The notes under the pieces are model-generated. The model saw nothing but the letters and a program-made list of their open reading frames with translations, made no database searches and was not told the origin of the DNA. From an uncultured Coriobacteriia bacterium (GTDB lineage: Bacteria > Actinomycetota > Coriobacteriia > Anaerosomatales > JAAXUF01): a DNA stretch of 64,000 nt. Shown piece after piece: positions 10,148 through 39,040 of this stretch; position 1 is the stretch's first letter; each line of letters starts with the position of its first letter. The stretch is taken from positions 31,088 through 95,087 of the forward strand of contig CAWBKW010000009.1 in assembly GCA_963789515.1 (NCBI GenBank), read 5' to 3'. A program made the position numbers and the translations under genes.

Positions 10148-10657
10148 TTACTGGCCGAGTTCCTCGAGTGCGGCGAGGTACTCGCTCTTGTGCTCGCCCT
10201 CGTAGCGGCCGACGGAGCGGAAGTAGGACGCGATCTGCGGGTACCCTTCGGCCTCGGCGGTCTCCGCGAACGACGGGTACATCTCGGCGGTCTCGTAGCC
10301 TTCACCCTCCGCGGCGGCGGCGAGGTTCTGCGCGGTCGTGCCGAAGCCGCCCATGTACGCGAGGTGGCCGAGCGCGTGCGCGGTCTCCTCGGCGGCAGCG
10401 CGGTCGAAGGCGTCGAGCGCCGACTGGGGCGCGCCCTCGAGCTCGGCGATGCGCTTCCAGAGCGTGTAGCGGCGATTGGCCTGGGACTCACCGGCGAAGG
10501 CGGCCTTGAGGTTCTCGAGGGTCTCGGTGCCGGTAAGGTCGCCGGGCCCCGCGTAGAGCGAGAACGCCGTGCGCGGCGCTCCGCACACGGGGCAGTGCTC
10601 GGGAGCGGGACCGACGTGGAGGTAGCCGCATGAGCTGCATCGGTACATCTCGACCAT
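10148..10657 (-). CDS. Reverse rubrerythrin (N-terminal rubredoxin-like domain plus di-iron domain)
   Basis: CSSCGY...CPVCGA followed by AFAGESQANRRY, EETAHA, EGYE, EGEH. Confidence 0.88.
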   Translation of the reverse strand: MVEMYRCSSCGYLHVGPAPEHCPVCGAPRTAFSLYAGPGDLTGTETLENLKAAFAGESQANRRYTLWKRIAELEGAPQSALDAFDRAAAEETAHALGHLAYMGGFGTTAQNLAAAAEGEGYETAEMYPSFAETAEAEGYPQIASYFRSVGRYEGEHKSEYLAALEELGQ

Positions 10658-10838
10658 GGAGGTCTCCTTTCGTGGCCGAAGCCGGTTGCTTTCGGCGGTG
10701 ACAGGTTCCTACCCAAGCCCGTCGCCGGAAGCCGCATCATAGCCGAGCGCAAGGGGCGACGATACACGGTCGCGCGGGTAGACTGATGTCGGCCTCGCAC
10801 GAGCAGGCCGAACGATGCCGGTCGAGGAGGACGTACAG

Positions 10839-12228
10839 ATGAAGAGGCTTTCCCGAACGCTTCCCTTGTTGTTCAGCGGGCTGATGCTGGCGCTGCTGGT
10901 CGCATCTCCTGCGCTGGCTGAACCCGTCCCTGTCGCGGCGGGGAACGCCAGCGTCGCCGCGTTCCCTTCGGCTGAGAACTGCGGATGCCACTCGACGCTC
11001 GTCGATCAGTGGAGCCAGTCCCTGCACCGCCAGGCGCTCGAGGACCCGATCTTCAAGACGAAGGTCGCACAGGCGGACGCCGCCACCAACGGCAAGATCG
11101 GGCCCGTTCTGCAAGAAGTGCCACGGACCCGTCGCCGAGATGACCGGTGAGTCGGGCAAGGACACCGCTGCGATGAGCCCGAGCGCGGCACAGAGCATCG
11201 GGTGCATGTTCTGCCACCAGGCCGTCGGCAACACCGAGCCCCTCGGCAACGTCTCCCAGCTGCTCGAACTGACCCTCACCCGCCGGGCGCAGATCGAGAA
11301 CCCCCAGGCGCCGCATCCCGCCGTCTACTCGCCCTTCCATGCGACCTCGGCGATCTGCGGCGGCTGCCACAACGTGAACCATCCCATCAACGGCATGCAC
11401 CTGGAGTCGACCTACCGAGAGTGGGCTGTGAGCCCGCAGGGCAAGGCCGGCACCCAGTGCCAGGACTGCCACATGAGCCAGAAGCCGGGACAAGTCGGCC
11501 CGTCCACCGGATCGGCCGCGTACGGAGCCCCCGAGCGACCCAATATCTACCAGATGACCTTCACCGGGGCGCAGGTCGCCCTCGGCAATCCGGAACTTGC
11601 CACACAGATGCTCCAGAGTGCCGCGACGCTTGAGATGGATGCGCCCAAGGTGGTCAAGGCCGGGGAAGATGCCTCGGTGACCGTGAAGATCACCAACAGT
11701 GGCGCCGGTCACTACCTCCCGACGGGACTGACGGAGGTCCGCGAGATGTGGCTGGACGTGTCGGTCGTCGACGCTGCCGGAACTGCCACGAGCCTCGGAG
11801 AGCACAAGTTCGGCACCGTACTCAAGGACGCAGCAGGGAAGTACCCCGCCGAGCTGTGGGACGCCGTTGCCGTACAATCCGACGACCGCATACCGCCGAA
11901 GGAGAGCGTGACCCACTCGTACAAGGTCGTCCTTCCGAGCGGGGTCGAAGCAGGCACGCTCAGGGCACAGCTCCTCTACCGCTCAGTCCCCGAGGAGCTT
12001 GCGACCAAGGCGGGGGTGAAGAACCCCACGACGGTGATGGCCTCGGCCCAGCAGCCTGTCTACGCGTCTGCTGAGGCCGAGCAGAAGGCCGCGCAAGACA
12101 CCGGGTCCGCAGAGACCGCCCCGCCCAACGTCTGGCTGATCACGTTCCTCACCGTCCTCGGTGTCGGAGTTCTGGTCCTGCTTGGCGTGCTCTGGTGGCG
12201 CCGTCGCTCCTCAGGCGGGTCGGCCTAG
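10839..12228 (+). CDS. Exported multiheme c-type cytochrome (c554-like, 5 heme motifs) with C-terminal membrane anchor; one frameshift near 11100
   Basis: RBS GAGGAGG, signal peptide; motifs CGCH, CKKCH (restored by removing 1 nt near 11101-11105), CMFCH, CGGCH, CQDCH; GAGHYLPTG; hydrophobic tail ending WWRRRS. Confidence 0.85.
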
Positions 12229-31376: not shown

Positions 31377-31440
31377 GGGCGGAGTCCGGTCCGACGAGTC
31401 CTTGGCTGAAGGATACCGACGTGGATCTGAGGGGGCAGGC

Positions 31441-32235
31441 GTGAGCGCACAGGAGTTCTGGTCCGGTTGGTGGTGGCCGGCAGCGACGGCGTTGGTCGGT
31501 CTCGTGTTCGCCTGGCTCGTCTTCGACCAATGGCTGCACCGGCGCAAACCCCATCAGCTTGCGTGGTCGGTAGGTCTGCTCATGTACGGAGTCGCGGCAC
31601 TGATGGAGGCGGTGTCCGAGTTCAGCGGGCACTGGAACCCGCTGGTGTATCGGCTCTACATCGTGCTTGCCGCTTCGATGGTGGGCTACCTCGGCCTTGG
31701 TTCGTACTATCTGATCGCCAAGAAGAAGACCGGCCCGCACATCTATCTGGGGATGCTCCTCGGCTGGGAGATCGTGTTCCTCTGGGGCGTGTTCAACACC
31801 ATGCTCATCCCGACCAAACTCGTGCCCGGCATCACCGTGGGTGGCCAGGCCCTGGGCGCCGCGTCGACCTTCCCACGCATCATGTCGCTGCCGTTCAACA
31901 TCACCGGTTCGATCTTCCTGCTCGGCGGCGCGCTCATCTCGATCTGGCGCTTCGCGCGCAAGAGGGAGTTCGCGTACCGGATGTGGGCGAACGTCTTCAT
32001 CGCGGCCGGGACCATCATCATCGCGGGCGCCGGCAGCATGGCCAGGGCGGGGCTCAGCGTCGGTCTCTATCCCGCCGAGATGGTCGCCTCCGCGCTGCTG
32101 CTCGTCGGATTCCTCATGGCCGGGACGCTCGACAAGGGCGTCAAGGAGTCGGTGCAGCACGGGCGCGAGCGCCGCGCACGCGAGGCGGCGGCGCGAGCTG
32201 CCGAGGAGATGCCTCCGCCCGACGAGGCGTCGTAG
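31441..32235 (+). CDS. Hypothetical polytopic (about 7 TM) membrane protein
   Basis: Multiple hydrophobic segments, typical codon usage. Confidence 0.7.
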   Translation: MSAQEFWSGWWWPAATALVGLVFAWLVFDQWLHRRKPHQLAWSVGLLMYGVAALMEAVSEFSGHWNPLVYRLYIVLAASMVGYLGLGSYYLIAKKKTGPHIYLGMLLGWEIVFLWGVFNTMLIPTKLVPGITVGGQALGAASTFPRIMSLPFNITGSIFLLGGALISIWRFARKREFAYRMWANVFIAAGTIIIAGAGSMARAGLSVGLYPAEMVASALLLVGFLMAGTLDKGVKESVQHGRERRAREAAARAAEEMPPPDEAS

Positions 32236-32256: not shown

Positions 32257-32973
32257 TCAGCCCTCTTCGTAGCCGCTTCCGAGTGCGGCGAGCGCCCGCA
32301 TGTCGGTGATGGTGACGTTCTGGCCGCTCACCTCCATGACTCCGTCGTCCTTGAGCCGCGCGAACGCTCGTGAGAGCGATTCGGGAGTGGTTCCGAGAGC
32401 CATGGCGAGTTCGCCCTTCTTCATGCCCAGGCTGACATGCAGCCCCGTGGCCGTGGGGCTGCCCGATTGCAGCGCGCGCTGGAAGACGTAGCGGGCGACA
32501 CGGCTCGGGACATCGAGCGCCAGCGTCGTGACGACCGCGGTGAAGTTCACGACGCGCGTAGCGAGATCCGCGAGCAGCGTGCGTGCCACCTGCGGCTCGT
32601 GGTCCAACAGCTCGAAGAGCGCTTCGGCCGGCACGCACGCGTAGGTCGCCGGCGTCGCAGCGTCGATGTTGGCCGGATAGCGCGCTCCGGCCATGGCCGC
32701 CACGGCGGCGAGCGGCTGGCCCGACTCGACGGTCTCGAAAGTGATCTGCCGGCCGTCTGCGCCCAGATAGAAGACGCGCGCCTTGCCCGCTATGAGCACA
32801 CCGAACTCCTCGGCGGGTTCGCCCTCGCGTGCAAGCGAGGCCCCGCGCGCCACGTCGGCGACCCGCGCCTGGCGCGCGAGCACCGCCACTGCTTCGTCGG
32901 AGGCGGTACGCCACAGCCTGCAGGCGCGGAAGGCGGCCCAGACGTCGGGACGGATGTCGGTCGGTGCGTCCAT
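32257..32973 (-). CDS. Crp/Fnr-family regulator (HcpR/Dnr-like)
   Basis: cNMP-like domain and HTH with TPESLSR recognition helix; no FNR Cys cluster; divergent from the hcp operon. Confidence 0.88.
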   Translation of the reverse strand: MDAPTDIRPDVWAAFRACRLWRTASDEAVAVLARQARVADVARGASLAREGEPAEEFGVLIAGKARVFYLGADGRQITFETVESGQPLAAVAAMAGARYPANIDAATPATYACVPAEALFELLDHEPQVARTLLADLATRVVNFTAVVTTLALDVPSRVARYVFQRALQSGSPTATGLHVSLGMKKGELAMALGTTPESLSRAFARLKDDGVMEVSGQNVTITDMRALAALGSGYEEG

Positions 32974-33088: not shown

Positions 33089-33102
33089 TTGATGTACGTC
33101 AA
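33089..33102. promoter_or_regulatory. FNR/HcpR-type binding site (class II position)
   Basis: TTGAT-gtac-GTCAA, centred at -41.5 if TAGAGT (33125-33130) is the -10 element. Confidence 0.8.
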
Positions 33103-33168: not shown

Positions 33169-33645
33169 GTGAACGACCGATTCGCCGAGAAGCTGGCCGA
33201 CCCCGTCATCGTGCACGACACCACGACGCTGGCGGACTTCGTCCAGATCTACTGCGACGGCCACCACAAGGATGCAGCGCGCAGGTCCGTCGAGACCGAC
33301 GCCGCACAGCTCGGCATCTACGGGCGCAAGCATCCGGTCCTCTGTGCTGAGTGCGAGGCTCACCTGGCATACGCCGAGAAGCGTCGTGCGTACTGCAACC
33401 AGGACCCGAAGCCGTTCTGCGCCTACTGCGAGGTCCACTGCTACAAGAACGACGAGCGCGAGTGGCAGCGCCAGATGATGCGCTACTCGGGTCCCAAGTC
33501 GTGGCGCAAAGGCCATGCGATCGACGGCGTCAAGCACATGCTCGACGGCCGCAAGTACCGAAAGCTCGCCGAGGCCAAGGCCAAGACGGCCGCCGCCGAG
33601 AAGACCGCCGCGCCCGCGGCAGACAACCAGGAGGAATCCCGATGA
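33169..33645 (+). CDS. YgbA-like (nitrous oxide-stimulated promoter family) Cys-rich protein
   Basis: IYCDGHH, LCAEC, YAEKR..C..KPFCAYC..HCY, MRYSGP motifs. Confidence 0.8.
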   Translation: MNDRFAEKLADPVIVHDTTTLADFVQIYCDGHHKDAARRSVETDAAQLGIYGRKHPVLCAECEAHLAYAEKRRAYCNQDPKPFCAYCEVHCYKNDEREWQRQMMRYSGPKSWRKGHAIDGVKHMLDGRKYRKLAEAKAKTAAAEKTAAPAADNQEESR

Positions 33646-34028
33646 GCACAACCGTGACACGCCAGATCGTCCGCATCGACGAGGAGCTCTGCAACGGCTG
33701 CGGCGTGTGCGTCTCGCCGTGCGCCGAAGGCGCGATCGTCATCGTCGACGGCAAGGCCCGCGTCGTGAAGGAAGAGCTGTGCGACGGAGCCGGCTTCTGT
33801 CTCGGCGTCTGCCCGACCGGCGCCCTGACGCTCGAGACCCGCGAGGCCGTCCCCTTCGACCACGACGCGGTCGAGGCGCACGTCGCCGAGCAGCCCAAGA
33901 CCTACATCGCCCAGACCTGCTTCAACTGTGGCCGCTCGGAAGATGACGGCCCGCTGCTGCCGGTCCGCACGCAGGGGACGAGCACGTGGGTCTGCACGCG
34001 CTGCTTGCCGGCACTGATTCACGGGTAG
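33642..34028 (+). CDS. 2x[4Fe-4S] ferredoxin with extra C-terminal CxxC...CxxC domain
   Basis: CNGCGVCVSPC, CDGAGFCLGVCP, CFNC...CTRC. Confidence 0.85.
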   Translation: MSTTVTRQIVRIDEELCNGCGVCVSPCAEGAIVIVDGKARVVKEELCDGAGFCLGVCPTGALTLETREAVPFDHDAVEAHVAEQPKTYIAQTCFNCGRSEDDGPLLPVRTQGTSTWVCTRCLPALIHG

Positions 34029-34215: not shown

Positions 34216-35877
34216 ATGACCCCGAACGAGAGCGTCATGTTCTGCAACCAGTGCGAGCAGACGGCCCATGGGACCGCCTGCGAGAAGATCGGTGTGTGCG
34301 GCAAGTCGCCGGACGTCTCGGCGTTGCAGGACCTGCTCGTGAATGCCTGCCGCGGCATCTCCATCGTCGCCCTCGACGCCGAGGGGCTCGGTATCGACAC
34401 GTCGGTCGCCGGCGCGTTCGTGGCCGACGCGCTGTTCACCACGCTCACGAACGTCGACTTCGACGCCGAGTCCGTCGCCTCGATCACCCGCGATGGCGTT
34501 GCGCTCCGTGAGGCGCTCAAGGCCGACGTGCGCGAGGCCGGCGGAACGACCTCCTACGACGACCTGTACGCCACGTTCGAACCCGCCGAGTCGACCGCCG
34601 GGCTCATCGCCCAAGGCCGCGAGTTCGGCTCTCCCTGGGACACTTCGCGCGATGCCGACGTGCAGTCGCTTCAGGAGACCACGCTGTACGGCATGAAGGG
34701 CGTCGGCGCATACGAGCATCACGCTCGCGCACTGGGCCACACCGACCCGGTCATCTACAGCTATCTCTTCAAGGCGCTCGCCGCGATGAGCGATGAGAAC
34801 CTCGACCTGAACGCGTGGGTCGGCCTGACGCTCGAGTGCGGTGCGGCGAACCTGCGCACCATGGAGATCCTCGACGCGGCCAACACCGGCGCATACGGCG
34901 ATCCCACGCCCACGTCAGTCTCCCTCGGCCAGCGCAAGGGCAAGGCGATCCTGATCTCCGGCCACGACCTCGCCGACCTCAAGGCGCTGCTCGAGGCCAC
35001 CAAGGGCACCGGCGTCGACGTCTACACCCACGGCGAGATGCTGCCGGCGCACGCGTACCCCGAACTGCACGCCTACGAGAACCTCGCCGGGCACTTCGGC
35101 ACCGCGTGGCAGAACCAGCACAAGGAGTTCCGCGAGTTCCCCGGCGCCATCCTGATGACCACCAACTGCCTGATGATCCCGCACGCCGAGTACAAGAGCC
35201 GCCTGTTCACCAGCGGGCCCGTGCGCTTCCCGGGTGTTCCGCACCTCACACGCGATGACTTCTCGGCTGTCGTCGAGAAGGCGCTCGCCGAGCCGGGATT
35301 CGAGTGGGACACGACCGTCGGCGAGGTTCTCGTCGGCTTCGGCCACAACGCCGTGCTCGCCGTCGCCCCGACCGTCATCGAAGCCGTCAAGAGCGGCGCG
35401 ATTCGCCACTTCTTCCTGGTCGGCGGGTGTGACGGCGCCCGTCCGGGGCGCAACTACTACACCGAGTTCGTCGAGGAGACCCCGAGCGACACCATCGTCA
35501 TGACGCTGGCCTGCGGCAAGTTCCGCTTCTTCGACAAGCAGCTCGGCGAGATCGGCGGTCTTCCGCGCCTCATGGACGTCGGCCAGTGCAACGACGCCTA
35601 CTCGGCGATCAAGATCGCTGTCGCGCTCGCTGACGCGTTCGAGTGCGGCGTCAACGACCTGCCGCTGTCGATGATCCTGTCGTGGTACGAGCAGAAGGCC
35701 GTTGCGATCCTTCTGACCCTGCTCCACCTCGGCATCACCGACATCCGGCTTGGCCCCACCCTGCCGGCGTTCATCACTCCCAACGTCTTGGGCGTGCTCG
35801 TCGAGAACTTCGCGATCAAGCCGATCGCCGCGAGCCCCCGCGAGGACCTCAACGCCATCCTGGGCGAGAAAGCGTAG
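34216..35877 (+). CDS. hcp: Hybrid-cluster protein (hydroxylamine/NO reductase)
   Basis: MFCNQCEQT..C..GVCGK, ILISGHDL, YTHGEMLPAH, TTNC, GGCDG, LACGK, GQCNDAYS, SWYEQKA. Confidence 0.96.
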   Translation: MTPNESVMFCNQCEQTAHGTACEKIGVCGKSPDVSALQDLLVNACRGISIVALDAEGLGIDTSVAGAFVADALFTTLTNVDFDAESVASITRDGVALREALKADVREAGGTTSYDDLYATFEPAESTAGLIAQGREFGSPWDTSRDADVQSLQETTLYGMKGVGAYEHHARALGHTDPVIYSYLFKALAAMSDENLDLNAWVGLTLECGAANLRTMEILDAANTGAYGDPTPTSVSLGQRKGKAILISGHDLADLKALLEATKGTGVDVYTHGEMLPAHAYPELHAYENLAGHFGTAWQNQHKEFREFPGAILMTTNCLMIPHAEYKSRLFTSGPVRFPGVPHLTRDDFSAVVEKALAEPGFEWDTTVGEVLVGFGHNAVLAVAPTVIEAVKSGAIRHFFLVGGCDGARPGRNYYTEFVEETPSDTIVMTLACGKFRFFDKQLGEIGGLPRLMDVGQCNDAYSAIKIAVALADAFECGVNDLPLSMILSWYEQKAVAILLTLLHLGITDIRLGPTLPAFITPNVLGVLVENFAIKPIAASPREDLNAILGEKA

Positions 35878-35883
35878 AGAACG

Positions 35884-36291
35884 ATGTCAGACCTCGATCG
35901 TGATACGACATCAGCAGCCGACGAGAGCGACGACGTCGCAGAGCAGACCGTCGAGTGCGCACCTGCCGGCCCGCGCTGGAAGCGGGTGCTCAAGTGGACC
36001 GCGATCGGTGTCGGCGGCACGCTGGTGTTCCTCGTGTTCGCGGCGTTCATGCTCTACAACTTCGGCGGCATGTGGGGCTCGGTCTACCCCGAGCTCGGCC
36101 CGCAGTACGAGCAGCTGGTGGCGTCCGGTCAGGCCCCTGCGTTGAGGAAGCGCTTCGTCATCCCGATTCCCGGGTGCCAGTGTCACAGCACCGACCCCGT
36201 GCTGACGGCACAGCACTCCAAGCGCCACATGAACGAATGCGGCAAGTGCCACAACACGCGGCCGGCCCACATGGAGCCCGGCGTGCTGTAG
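35884..36291 (+). CDS. Small membrane-anchored putative di-heme cytochrome c (CxCH plus CxxCH)
   Basis: Basic patch and TM helix, then GCQCHST and ECGKCHN; starts 6 nt after the hcp stop. Confidence 0.7.
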   Translation: MSDLDRDTTSAADESDDVAEQTVECAPAGPRWKRVLKWTAIGVGGTLVFLVFAAFMLYNFGGMWGSVYPELGPQYEQLVASGQAPALRKRFVIPIPGCQCHSTDPVLTAQHSKRHMNECGKCHNTRPAHMEPGVL

Positions 36292-36322: not shown

Positions 36323-36356
36323 GCGGCCCGGCCTCCGGCGACGGAGGCCGGGCCGC
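36323..36356 (+). terminator. Terminator of the hcp operon
   Basis: GCGGCCCGGCCTCCG-gcga-CGGAGGCCGGGCCGC followed by TGTCTT. Confidence 0.75.
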
Positions 36357-36463
36357 TGTCTTCGTGTCGGATTCGGGCGTCCGCACCGCCACTCTCTGCG
36401 CTACCATGGGTCGTGGCGGTCGACGGCCGCCCGTGCCCGCACGAGACCGCGTCGGAGGACCCG

Positions 36464-38305
36464 ATGGCCGAGATCATGCAGCACCTGACCGCGTTGGCTG
36501 ATGAGATCGGCCCGCGTCCGGCGACGAGTGATGCCGAGAGCCGCGCCGCTGACTACATCACGTCGGTGTTCGTGGCGCGCGGGCTCGAACCCGAGACCCA
36601 CGAGTTCGATTCGCCCCGGACCTACTCCTGGGCGTTCGTCATCTACTTCACCCTGACGCTGCTCTCGGCCGTGGTGGCGGGGATCAAGCCCGAGATCGCC
36701 GCGCTGAACTGGGGTGCGCTGCTTGTCTCAGCGGGTGTCGCGGTCTCATTCTGGCTCGACCTCGACACGCGCAGGGGAGGGCTCAGTCGGCTCATGCCCA
36801 AGGGCCCGAGCCAGAACGTCATCGCGCGCCACGTCCCCAAGTCCCGGCGTGGCGAGAAGCTCAAGAAGATCGTCATCGTCGCTCACTACGACACCGCCCG
36901 CGCGTCGCTCGCGTTCTCACCGGGGATGGTGCGTCAGTTCCCGGTGACGTTCGCCCTCATGAAGTGGGCGACGTTCCTCACGCCGGTCCTCATCCTCGCG
37001 ATGGCGACCCCTTGGACCGCCAAGGCCGAGCCGTACCTGTGGTACGTGACGATGGTGCTCGCCGCCTACCTGCTCATTCCGCTGTTCATCAACGTCCAGC
37101 GCGAGCTGATGATGCCGTTCGTCGACGGCGCCAACGACAATGCGTCGGGCGTCGCCGCGATGCTGGGCGTGCTCCACAACCTCGTTTCAGAGCCGGAGGC
37201 TTCGCGCTTCTCGACCTCGCAGTTCGAACCGGTGCAGCGCGGAGCCGAGGCGGCACTCGCCGCCGACGTGGTTCCCGAGGGTGCGCTCCTCTCGTACTCG
37301 CCTGCCGGATCGCGCGACACCGCAAGCGAGCTGCCCGAGGACTTCCGTTGGGCCGAGCCGTCCGGAGAGGCCGCACGTCCTCCCCAGAAGGGCCAGGGCT
37401 TCCTGGAGTTCGGGACGATCGACTTCGCAGCCGTCGGCCCCGAGGCGTCCAAGCCGTCCAAGCCGGAGGAGCCGGTTGCGCCGGAACCGCCTGCACGCTC
37501 GAGCGTTTCTACCGGCCCCGATACGCTGCCCGGCTCGGGTGCCGTACCCGGGAGCGGTGCGACCGAAGACCCGTCGCGCAAGCGCCGCGGGCTTCTCGGC
37601 GGGCTGGGACTCGGCAAGAAGAAGAAGGAAGAGGACCACGACGTCAAAGGTTGGCTCGGGGTCGACGACGAGTTCGACGCTCGCAAGGCGGGCGCCGACA
37701 TCGGGTCGTGGGACAAGTTCGGTGACGGTGACGACGATGACGACGACGGCATCGGCTGGAAGGGCGGCTGGGCGGGCGACGACCCGATCGGCGACGATGA
37801 CTTCTCGGCCAACGAGGCAGCCCGTATCCGCCGCAGGGTCACCGAGTCGGTCGACCGCGAGCTGAGCGAGAAGGAAGTGTGGTTCGTCGCGACCGGTGCC
37901 GAGGAGGTCGGGACCGTCGGCATGCAGGCGTTCCTTGACGACTACGGCGACGAGCTGCGCGACGCGCTCATCATCAACATCGACAACGTGGGCGCCGGTC
38001 AGCTCTCGTGGGTCACCGCTGAGGGCATGGCGCGCCGCTACCGTGCGGCCCAGCGGATCATCGGGCTCGCCAAACGCGCCTCCCGTGAGCGCGAGATCCT
38101 CGTGAAGCCGCGCGTCTTCAAGGGCCTCTCGACCGACGCCACGCCGGCGCTCGCTCGCGGCTTCAAGGCGATGACCCTCATGGCGTTCGACAACTCCGGC
38201 CTGCCGATGAACTGGCACTGGAAGACCGACACGACGGACAACATCGAGCCCGAGGTCGTCGAGCGCGTGGCCGACCTGGTCACCGAGATGATCCGCGAGG
38301 CCTAG
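36464..38305 (+). CDS. Membrane-embedded M28 family metallopeptidase
   Basis: IGPRPATS, VAHYDT, GANDNASG, GAEEVG, NIDNVG, WHWKTD; four TM helices and a long acidic insertion. Confidence 0.85.
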   Translation: MAEIMQHLTALADEIGPRPATSDAESRAADYITSVFVARGLEPETHEFDSPRTYSWAFVIYFTLTLLSAVVAGIKPEIAALNWGALLVSAGVAVSFWLDLDTRRGGLSRLMPKGPSQNVIARHVPKSRRGEKLKKIVIVAHYDTARASLAFSPGMVRQFPVTFALMKWATFLTPVLILAMATPWTAKAEPYLWYVTMVLAAYLLIPLFINVQRELMMPFVDGANDNASGVAAMLGVLHNLVSEPEASRFSTSQFEPVQRGAEAALAADVVPEGALLSYSPAGSRDTASELPEDFRWAEPSGEAARPPQKGQGFLEFGTIDFAAVGPEASKPSKPEEPVAPEPPARSSVSTGPDTLPGSGAVPGSGATEDPSRKRRGLLGGLGLGKKKKEEDHDVKGWLGVDDEFDARKAGADIGSWDKFGDGDDDDDDGIGWKGGWAGDDPIGDDDFSANEAARIRRRVTESVDRELSEKEVWFVATGAEEVGTVGMQAFLDDYGDELRDALIINIDNVGAGQLSWVTAEGMARRYRAAQRIIGLAKRASREREILVKPRVFKGLSTDATPALARGFKAMTLMAFDNSGLPMNWHWKTDTTDNIEPEVVERVADLVTEMIREA

Positions 38306-38329: not shown

Positions 38330-39040
38330 CTAGGGCCAAGCCTCGGGCATCTCCATCTCCTCGATGTCCTCGCCCTCCTCGGCGAGTTCCTCCTCGGCTT
38401 CTGAGAATCCGAGGGGCTCTCCGTGTGGGCGGTGCCACGCGAGCCTGTCGGCGTAGAAGGCCATCGCCGTTCCCACGGTGACGAGTACGGCGCTCGCCGA
38501 GAAGACAGGCAGCATCAGCGGCGAGCGCTGAAGGGCCACGATCACGATTCCGAACACGATGAAGCCGAGGTGCAGCAGGCCGCTGCCGGCCTTGGTGAGC
38601 CGGCCTTGGGTCAGATAGGACGGGCCGCGCACGCCGGCCACGGTCATGACCACCACCGCGACTTGGATCGCCGCCGCCAGGCCCAGGTAGACCGCGAGGC
38701 CGCGGCCCAGGTCCGAACTCGCCACACCTGCCACGACGCCCGCAGCGACCATGGCGACCGAGATCGCCAGGAGCAGTCGTCGCGAGAACAGGCGCTTGGG
38801 CACGCACAGCCCCATCACCACGACGAGCGCCAGGATCTGCGGTGCAGCGATCGCGTTCATCGCGGAGACGTAGGAGGTGTAGCCGGCGCCCTGCTCCCAG
38901 CCGGGGATGGTCTTCTCGGCGAAGAGCACCCAGATGGTGCCGACGAAGGATTGCACGCCGAGCGATGCGAGGAGGATGACCGTGATCACCGTGAGCGCGA
39001 AGTCCCAGGAACGCTGACGGATGTGCTCGATATCGACCAT
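38330..39040 (-). CDS. Membrane protein resembling the C-terminal half of heme lyase CcmF
   Basis: FVGTIW, MNAIAAP..LVVVMGL and GLLHLGF segments parallel CcmF LLGTLLP, FFN..P..LLLG and AHLG; TGATG coupling to the upstream gene. Confidence 0.6.
   Translation of the reverse strand: MVDIEHIRQRSWDFALTVITVILLASLGVQSFVGTIWVLFAEKTIPGWEQGAGYTSYVSAMNAIAAPQILALVVVMGLCVPKRLFSRRLLLAISVAMVAAGVVAGVASSDLGRGLAVYLGLAAAIQVAVVVMTVAGVRGPSYLTQGRLTKAGSGLLHLGFIVFGIVIVALQRSPLMLPVFSASAVLVTVGTAMAFYADRLAWHRPHGEPLGFSEAEEELAEEGEDIEEMEMPEAWP

Follow-up and report, generated by a model that had tools for sequence, protein, structure and literature searches.

What is the function of a small protein with two unlike Cys/His motifs that is encoded directly behind hcp, the gene of the hybrid cluster protein? 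This question is raised by a 64,000-nucleotide stretch of DNA (hereafter the window) from an uncultured bacterium of the Coriobacteriia, order Anaerosomatales (contig CAWBKW010000009.1 of assembly GCA_963789515.1). Here, a row of four genes consists of a ygbA-like gene, a ferredoxin gene, hcp and, in the last position, a gene for a protein of 135 residues, which we call the mini gene and the mini protein. Our analysis points, with a probability of roughly 0.6, to a small type-II membrane-anchored and outward-facing dihaem protein, the product of the terminal gene of a nitric oxide (NO)- and nitrite-responsive operon of the HcpR type; haem attachment, co-transcription and the role of the protein are what we infer from comparing sequences.

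Conservation and homology of the Cys/His module

The mini gene starts at the first possible ATG, with an in-frame stop two codons earlier, and is separated by a 6-nt gap from the hcp stop codon, which ends at 35877. Its product comprises an acidic and poorly conserved N-terminus of about 30 residues, a helix (residues 31-60), a conserved juxtamembrane stretch and a C-terminal Cys/His core, which reads IPGC98QC100H101S...H111...C119GKC122H123...H129. A first-pass annotation of the window had taken this protein for a membrane-anchored mini-cytochrome on the basis of the 135-residue frame 6 nt past hcp, the GCQCHST motif at 36175-36186, the CGKCH motif and spare His and Met residues (H111, H115, H129, M116 and M130), all of which are present.

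A search of a large protein collection yielded 149 homologues of the mini protein, nearly all of them metagenomic "hypothetical proteins", with two labelled Coriobacteriia. The motif and topology counts given here for homologues rest on the 120 of these 149 matches that were listed. Exactly one CxCH and one CxxCH are found in each of the 120, and the conservation of CxCH in homologues, which had been proposed as a check at first pass, is borne out throughout this set. An alignment of 33 sequences shows that C98, C100, H101, S102, H111, C119, C122 and H123 are invariant and that H129 is kept in at least 90%; T103 varies. Among 40 diverse sequences of the module, the residues P, G, C, C, H, S, H, C, C and H never vary and define a core of the form PGCxCHS-x9-H-x7-CxxCH.

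We also searched 401 Coriobacteriia genomes, comprising 145 sampled from the window's order, 255 from the rest of the class and the window's own. The mini protein was matched in 119 of the 145 genomes of the order and in the window's own genome, while the 255 genomes from the rest of the class gave one weak match, confined to the transmembrane region. The mini protein is a real and constrained, order-wide family without prior annotation.

In the other families of the order, variants occur: a shorter form that ends straight after CxxCH and a second subtype in which a linker rich in Pro and Ala follows the anchor. Both variants are encoded in tandem behind hcp in one family (L029, L035, L042 and other loci), first the linker type and then the short type, which ends near CxxCH. 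The products of such tandem genes may form a heterodimer.

We then consider the haem reading. Among 1.84 billion representative proteins, the module profile found 90 matches at E<=1e-3. The pattern of CxCH plus CxxCH was repeated in 57 of the 58 best new representatives (P0195-P0252). The weaker matches, which are small, either secreted or anchored, and contain 2-6 haem motifs, have in common the module ...PPGC[ST]CHSK[ND]P..V.MH.......C..CH; five of them present a canonical first site (CKVCH, CTVCH or CNVCH) in a context that otherwise matches. When 14 distant relatives were aligned, the first site was CxCH in nine and CxxCH in five, separated by a one-residue gap, with C, C, H, S, H, C, C and H invariant. 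The Ser after the first-site His is present also in those distant relatives which carry the canonical CxxCH. Comparison of the 40-sequence module with the 14 relatives by hhalign gave a probability of 98.5% (E 3.9e-15, 37 columns), a result that is partly circular, as the relatives were chosen from the module-profile matches (E 1e-7 to 1e-3, Cys/His-rich).

Established cytochrome models are matched above their Pfam cut-offs by P0263 (Cytochrom_c3_2, 37 bits, cut-off 25), P0281 (Cytochrome_C7, 28 bits, cut-off 24.8) and both P0277 and P0270 (Paired_CXXCH_1, cut-off 20.6). For the genomic context of the distant tri-haem relatives, a scan of metagenome contigs with a single protein found nothing. 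Atlas neighbours of the mini protein, at 0.88-0.89, carry c3/c7-type families and are taken as leads only. Because homologous modules alternate between CxCH and CxxCH at the same place, we read CxCH as a contracted haem site. The mini protein is very probably a c-type cytochrome, with CxCH as a contracted haem-c site, and its core of about 30 residues probably binds two c-type haems covalently, the first via CxCH and the second via CxxCH. The mini-cytochrome identity put forward at first pass is strengthened by the homology of the module to c3/c7-type modules with alternating CxCH and CxxCH, by the predicted outward position of the domain and by the presence of CcmE and CcmF in the genome (C2:191741-194691).

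The position of the domain was predicted from charge. Each of the 120 homologues contains a single hydrophobic segment, which in the mini protein is modelled by AlphaFold2 as helix 31-60 with a confidence score (pLDDT) above 89, in agreement with the membrane anchor that had been noticed before. On average, Lys and Arg together number 4.57 in the 15 residues before the segment and 0.27 in the 15 residues that follow; 116 homologues have more of them on the N side, 4 have the same number on both sides and 0 have fewer on the N side. This charge bias therefore predicts an N-in/C-out topology, with the Cys/His core outside the membrane. A cytoplasmic domain, which the first-pass annotation had held to be incompatible with its reading, is not what the charge bias predicts. 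A twin-arginine motif is not conserved in the 33 aligned sequences, and the anchor is of the Sec type. Only some 30 acidic, poorly conserved residues make up the cytoplasmic part of the protein.

The HcpR-type operon and the place of the mini gene

Does the mini gene belong to the response to nitrosative stress? The pattern TTGAYN4RTCAA has its sole match in the 64-kb window in the box at 33089-33102 (0.07 expected by chance), and the same box is found in 23 of the 23 crp-ygbA intergenic regions of related loci. According to passages of Rodionov et al. (PMC1274295), the FNR-like HcpR consensus wyTTGACnnnnGTCAArw lies upstream of hcp and frdX, and the box of the window equals this consensus. 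Both features by which an HcpR regulon is recognised, the upstream palindrome and an adjacent Crp/Fnr regulator gene, are found at the locus. This supports the view that the mini gene belongs to a nitrosative-stress operon of HcpR type, as predicted from the box and the neighbouring regulator gene. The earlier claim of an NO- or nitrite-stress redox partner of Hcp is in this way split: the recurrent HcpR-type box upholds the part on the nitrosative-stress operon, whereas the part on a redox partner of Hcp is not supported.

The latter part is at odds with the predicted topology. Hcp is a protein of the cytoplasm, whereas the Cys/His domain is predicted to lie on the other side of the membrane, and a haem domain that faces outward could not pass electrons to Hcp directly. 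The natural and expected donor of Hcp is the 2x[4Fe-4S] ferredoxin that is encoded in the same operon.

The mini gene keeps its place across relatives. In loci from named metagenome-assembled genomes it lies behind hcp in 5 of 5 and behind the ferredoxin gene in 0; in the 30 best loci of the genome search these numbers are 26 and 4, and in 20 loci picked among low-scoring, module-only matches they are 17 and 3. The ferredoxin-adjacent mini genes are those of loci without hcp. The neighbourhood search that had been suggested at first pass hence gives the mini gene hcp as its immediate upstream neighbour, or the ferredoxin gene if the locus has no hcp, in all 50 genome-search loci, counts that are not independent, as all genomes with the mini protein are kin within an order spanning 25 family-level groups.

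The mini gene may be co-transcribed with hcp, and the 6-nt gap suggests coupling. No RNA contig spans the junction of hcp and the mini gene; the three metatranscriptome runs matched just 4-5% of words and are uninformative either way on transcription. A 161-nt contig of an RNA library covers 36172-36278 with 13 differences, which show that its source is a relative, and DNA carry-over may account for it. The operon terminator that had been noticed at first pass was found as a perfect 15-bp hairpin 32 nt after the stop codon, although a consensus terminator scan made no call on it, a clean T-run being missing.

We propose that nitrite or NO stress would lead the HcpR-like regulator to turn on ygbA, ferredoxin, hcp and the mini gene, and that the ferredoxin-Hcp pair would remove NO in the cytoplasm. 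The mini-cytochrome would be exported by means of its signal-anchor and loaded with haem by System I (Ccm). On the outer face of the membrane it would draw electrons from the abundant membrane multihaem quinol dehydrogenases, and it could relay them to NO- or nitrite-derived species, or itself bind or reduce these, before they enter the cytoplasm.

The same gene order can be read in another way, which we consider possible but improbable: the protein could be a dihaem cytochrome unrelated to NO stress, acting as a generic relay of extracellular electron transfer or as a partner of the M28-like protein, with its gene ending a syntenic block. In 4 of 30 and 3 of 20 loci the mini gene persists although hcp is absent, most loci have an M28-like gene next after it, synteny across the order extends over the whole region between the gene of a 277-aa membrane protein and the GGDEF gene, these two included, and the genome is rich in multihaem cytochromes. 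On the other hand, in the loci without hcp the mini gene still lies directly behind ygbA and ferredoxin under the same HcpR-type box, only 6 nt separate it from hcp in the window, and a strong hairpin stands between the mini gene and the M28-like gene. The persistence of the mini gene with ygbA and ferredoxin after loss of hcp fits either view.

Table 1 Positions of the features discussed, numbered from the first letter of the window.
Feature	Position	Strand	Remarks
ExtKL-like multihaem cytochrome gene	10815-12228	+	NF040886 3.5e-13 on second part; one CxCH, four CxxCH, C-terminal membrane helix
Crp/Fnr-family regulator gene, HcpR-like, divergent from the operon	32257..32973	-	HTH_Crp_2 5.8e-15, cNMP_binding 4.4e-13; syntenic in related loci
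FNR/HcpR-type palindrome TTGATGTACGTCAA	33089..33102	+	67 nt upstream of ygbA, between regulator gene and ygbA
ygbA-like gene (nitrous oxide-stimulated promoter family), first gene of the operon	33169..33645	+	PF11756 3.4e-20; NF007714 6.3e-24
2x[4Fe-4S] ferredoxin gene, FrdX-like, overlapping the ygbA stop	33642..34028	+	Fer4_7 7.2e-11 and related Fer4 models
hcp, hybrid cluster protein / hydroxylamine reductase	34216..35877	+	Prismane 4.2e-157; NF003658 1.8e-230
Putative dihaem c-type cytochrome gene (mini gene)	35884..36291	+	Open reading frame, 135 aa, ATG
Single transmembrane helix, residues 31-60, predicted N-in/C-out	35974..36063	+	AlphaFold2 helix, pLDDT 89-98; charge bias
C98-Q-C100-H101, contracted CxCH site (putative haem 1)	36175..36186	+	Invariant in the 33- and 40-sequence alignments
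H111, putative distal ligand	36214..36216	+	Only invariant His besides the two CH pairs (33, 40 and 14 aligned sequences)
C119-G-K-C122-H123, canonical CxxCH site (putative haem 2)	36238..36252	+	Invariant in the 33- and 40-sequence alignments
Family-specific tail NTRPAHMEPGVL, including H129	36253..36288	+	Differs or absent in the order's other families; many homologues end straight after CxxCH
Perfect 15-bp hairpin, 4-nt loop, terminator-like	36323..36356	+	Inverted repeat, 32 nt past the mini gene stop
M28-peptidase-like membrane protein gene	36413..38305	+	Peptidase_M28 1.6e-20; follows the mini gene in most loci
Gene of a 236-aa multi-pass membrane protein, translationally coupled to the CcsA-like gene	38330-39040	-	No family match
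Divergent CcsA-like gene (haem-handling family), 331 aa	39043-40035	-	Trp-rich motif WQGEAWWWSGK and flanking His

Putative haem ligands, maturation and the competing readings

Besides the kinship of the genomes and the partial circularity of the module comparison, several results weigh against the dihaem reading. The mini protein has no Pfam or NCBIfam match at E<=0.1. A profile search against the PDB returned nothing significant, with weak rows for OmcA (E 0.022) and PpcA (E 1.3). AlphaFold2 confidence is low in the Cys/His domain (pLDDT 45-61), and a Foldseek search of the PDB with this model, which is poor in the core, gave no match at E<=0.001.

The number of ligands falls short as well. 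Three His, not four, are universal over the 40 module sequences, and Met is not among the conserved residues. In the family to which the window belongs there are four His (H101, H111, H123 and H129), of which only three are invariant across the order, against the two per haem that bis-His coordination takes; two bis-His haems are therefore not possible from invariant residues. One haem may thus be open or weakly ligated, or it may take a ligand from a partner or from another copy of the protein; alternatively, the protein may hold a single haem.

From such an open site follows a more specific proposal, which we regard as tentative and rather doubtful. One five-coordinate or weakly ligated haem would make the protein an extracytoplasmic mini-cytochrome that binds or reduces NO (or nitrite or hydroxylamine), forming a two-compartment NO defence with cytoplasmic Hcp, alongside which HcpR would induce it, and the contraction of CxCH would tune that haem and not be a neutral variant.

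The shortfall of ligands could also mean that the protein is monohaem. Haem would then be bound at CxxCH only (H123, with H111 as the distal ligand), and CxC would be a redox-active or NO- or metal-reactive dithiol, or Cys98 an axial ligand. Three invariant His for two putative haems, a tail past CxxCH that is variable or absent, and the fact that a functional CxCH haem site is documented for one protein in passages of PMC7096707 and PMC8388095 are consistent with this reading. We nevertheless find it unlikely: the His right after the second Cys of CxCH is invariant, relatives carry a canonical CxxCH at exactly that place, and CxCH replaces CxxCH at a conserved position in an unrelated family of multihaem cytochromes.

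Still less probable is a protein with no haem, whose four Cys either serve, alone or together with His, as ligands of Zn or of an Fe-S cluster or form disulfides. Four invariant Cys lie within about 26 residues, and no cytochrome model matches the mini protein. CDGSH proteins, which have the spacing CxC-x2-(S/T)-x3-P-x-CDG(S/A/T)H, also contain CxC, and Rieske proteins have the spacing CxH...CxxH. The box II motif of Rieske proteins is CxCH according to a passage of PMC4122944. This reading is opposed by the predicted extracytoplasmic location of the domain, which follows a Sec-type anchor that has no conserved twin-arginine, by the invariant His after both Cys pairs, by a motif order and spacing unlike those of Rieske or CDGSH proteins, neither of which was found by Pfam, and by the homology of the module to c3/c7-type cytochrome modules. 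The Rieske and CDGSH identities as such were rejected for their motif order, spacing and location, with no Pfam match.

Which system would load the haem? Of the 145 genomes of the order, 135 gave a match to CcmF, and the seven genomes that have the mini protein without a CcmF match are 77-92% complete. A comparison of genomes with the mini protein and without a maturation system is uninformative, as nearly the whole order has CcmF.

Dedicated haem lyases are known for odd motifs, NrfI/NrfEFG for CXXCK and CcsA1 for CX15CH, and the first-pass annotation had suggested that CxCH-S-T is a signal for a special lyase. The divergent CcsA-like gene of the window is located 2.7 kb downstream of the mini gene, on the opposite strand and past the M28-like gene. 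As in the systems with odd-motif lyases, a divergent haem-handling gene is found near an odd-motif gene, but its occurrence does not follow that of the mini protein. An orthologue (E<=1e-30) is present in about 98 of the 145 genomes of the order and in none outside it, though these genomes have full System I. At least 13 genomes (94-100% complete) that have the mini protein gave no match to the CcsA-like orthologue, and at least 9 genomes that lack the mini protein do have the orthologue. By family, the CcsA-like and the mini protein occur in 21 versus 40 of 44 genomes (f2), 2 versus 11 of 15 (f16) and 5 versus 1 of 5 (f11). The CcsA-like gene was accordingly rejected as an obligatory partner or lyase of the mini protein. 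If the long TTG-started open reading frame is taken, the 5' part of the CcsA-like gene overlaps the GGDEF gene on the opposite strand.

We give least credit to CxCH-S-T as a tag for a dedicated lyase combined with the mini protein as electron donor of Hcp: the divergent CcsA-like gene and its coupled membrane-protein gene, 2.7 kb downstream and confined to the same order, are set against the genomes that have one of the two proteins without the other, a variable T103, an S102 that follows the canonical CxxCH too in relatives, and a domain predicted outside when Hcp is inside. The lyase signal proposed at first pass finds no support on the same grounds, and the genome-wide check of CxCH motifs, in which the next residue is G, K or S, gives no common CxCH-S-T tag.

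Relation to known systems and other cytochromes of the window and genome

How does a dihaem mini protein compare with known systems? According to passages of PMC7096707 and PMC8388095, experiments reported by Ferousi et al. (2019) showed that a tetrahaem protein from Kuenenia stuttgartiensis has a haem site with the contracted motif CKCH. According to the same passages, this protein, Kuste2854 (KsTH), combines Cys-x-Cys-His with canonical CxxCH in a small multihaem protein, as the mini protein does. By description the two are set apart: Kuste2854 is a soluble anammox tetrahaem protein linked to hydrazine synthase, whereas the mini protein is two-site, membrane-anchored and encoded in an hcp operon of an actinobacterium with System I. 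The FEET pipeline includes CXCH among its haem patterns, as a passage of PMC11218250 shows. Beyond the Kuenenia case, the passages found on CXCH together with haem or cytochrome contain only this software pattern (PMC11218250), the Rieske box II (PMC4122944) and a CCXCH case (bioRxiv 653014).

With class III cytochromes of the c7/PpcA, c3 and doubled-CXXCH types (PF14522, PF14537, PF09699), the mini protein shares a density of about 13-25 residues per haem site. In class III cytochromes a His 7-10 residues before CxxCH ligates the neighbouring haem, and the mini protein has such a His. It differs in that it matches no such model, has two sites rather than three or four, the first of them contracted, and is tethered by an N-terminal helix. 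The NrfH/NapC/NirT/CymA family (PF03264) has a single N-terminal helix with the haem domain on the outer face, as predicted for the mini protein, but its members carry at least four haems and a quinol site near the membrane, whereas the mini protein has two sites and no similarity to PF03264. The mini protein resembles a minimal class III (c3/c7-type) multihaem unit placed on an NrfH-like anchor, and formally stands outside those Pfam families.

Among the partners of Hcp, Hcr and FrdX are encoded in hcp operons under NO-responsive regulators, as described in passages of PMC1274295. These are cytoplasmic flavin or Fe-S proteins, whereas the mini protein is predicted to be outward-facing and of haem type; a FrdX-like ferredoxin is present in the operon at 33642-34028. 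The conserved outward-facing cytochrome in an HcpR-type operon suggests an extracytoplasmic arm of the nitrosative-stress response of Hcp. None is described in a limited search of passages of the Hcp and HcpR literature, including PMC1274295, which is no proof that it is unpublished. If the NO-binding proposal is true, iron-cycling Coriobacteriia, which are Gram-positive, would be defended against NO in two compartments.

The contracted motif itself is a known rarity. What is new is the order-wide, unannotated dihaem family, its fixed place in the HcpR-type hcp operon, and the natural alternation of CxCH and CxxCH within one small module. As the same module occurs with either motif, it offers a compact system for the effects of contraction on haem attachment, redox potential and lyase specificity. 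Searches for CxxCH only, together with current family libraries, miss the mini protein, and in several further cytochromes of these bacteria they overlook a haem site, so that the number of haems in OPB41-like Coriobacteriia is underestimated. Isolates of OPB41/Anaerosomatales have about 2 Mb, 66-68% GC and 17-18 multihaem cytochromes according to passages of PMC9686372. The genome of the window resembles them, with 2.5 Mb, 66-67% GC and more than 20 frames with at least four CxxCH motifs.

Contracted sites are present in other cytochromes of the genome as well. Three NapC/NirT-like multihaem proteins of the genome (C4:128383-129288, C4:300461-301831 and C4:301901-303670; loci L066 and L067) have 8, 14 and 23 CxxCH sites. 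Each of them ends in ...CxxCH-x8-12-[YF]C[TS]CH..., a few residues before the C-terminus. In 68 homologues of the protein at C4:128383-129288, C[TS]CH is present in 66, CAKCH stands there in one, and one is truncated. This is an independent case of CxCH in place of CxxCH at a conserved position.

The ExtKL-like cytochrome gene, 25 kb from the mini gene, is seen as two open reading frames (10815..11150 and 11140..12228), with a frameshift near 11106; the frame +1 from 11107 reads FCKKCHGPVAEMT. An intact homologue of 469 aa, 92% identical, indicates that the pair is one gene, and the frameshift could be an assembly error or a real pseudogene. Its CxCH lies in the context ENCGCHST, with C56 at 10980. 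The first-pass annotation had held CxCH-S-T to be common to this cytochrome and the mini protein; this is true of the copy in the window, whereas three of four homologues have CGCHG. Just upstream, at 10148-10657 (-), is a rubrerythrin gene with an N-terminal rubredoxin-like domain. At the other CxCH sites of the genome the next residue is G, K or S. One more CxCH, CICH, was observed in a frame of 1054 aa (C9:191890-195051, -; locus L068), in which a part that reads like repeated surface-type domains is followed by CICH and then by seven CxxCH.

Finally, the M28-like protein, an order-wide downstream neighbour, has a peptidase domain broken up by several membrane helices and a long low-complexity stretch. 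The 277-aa multi-pass membrane protein (31402-32235, +) has no family match, and its gene stands beside the regulator gene in many related loci.

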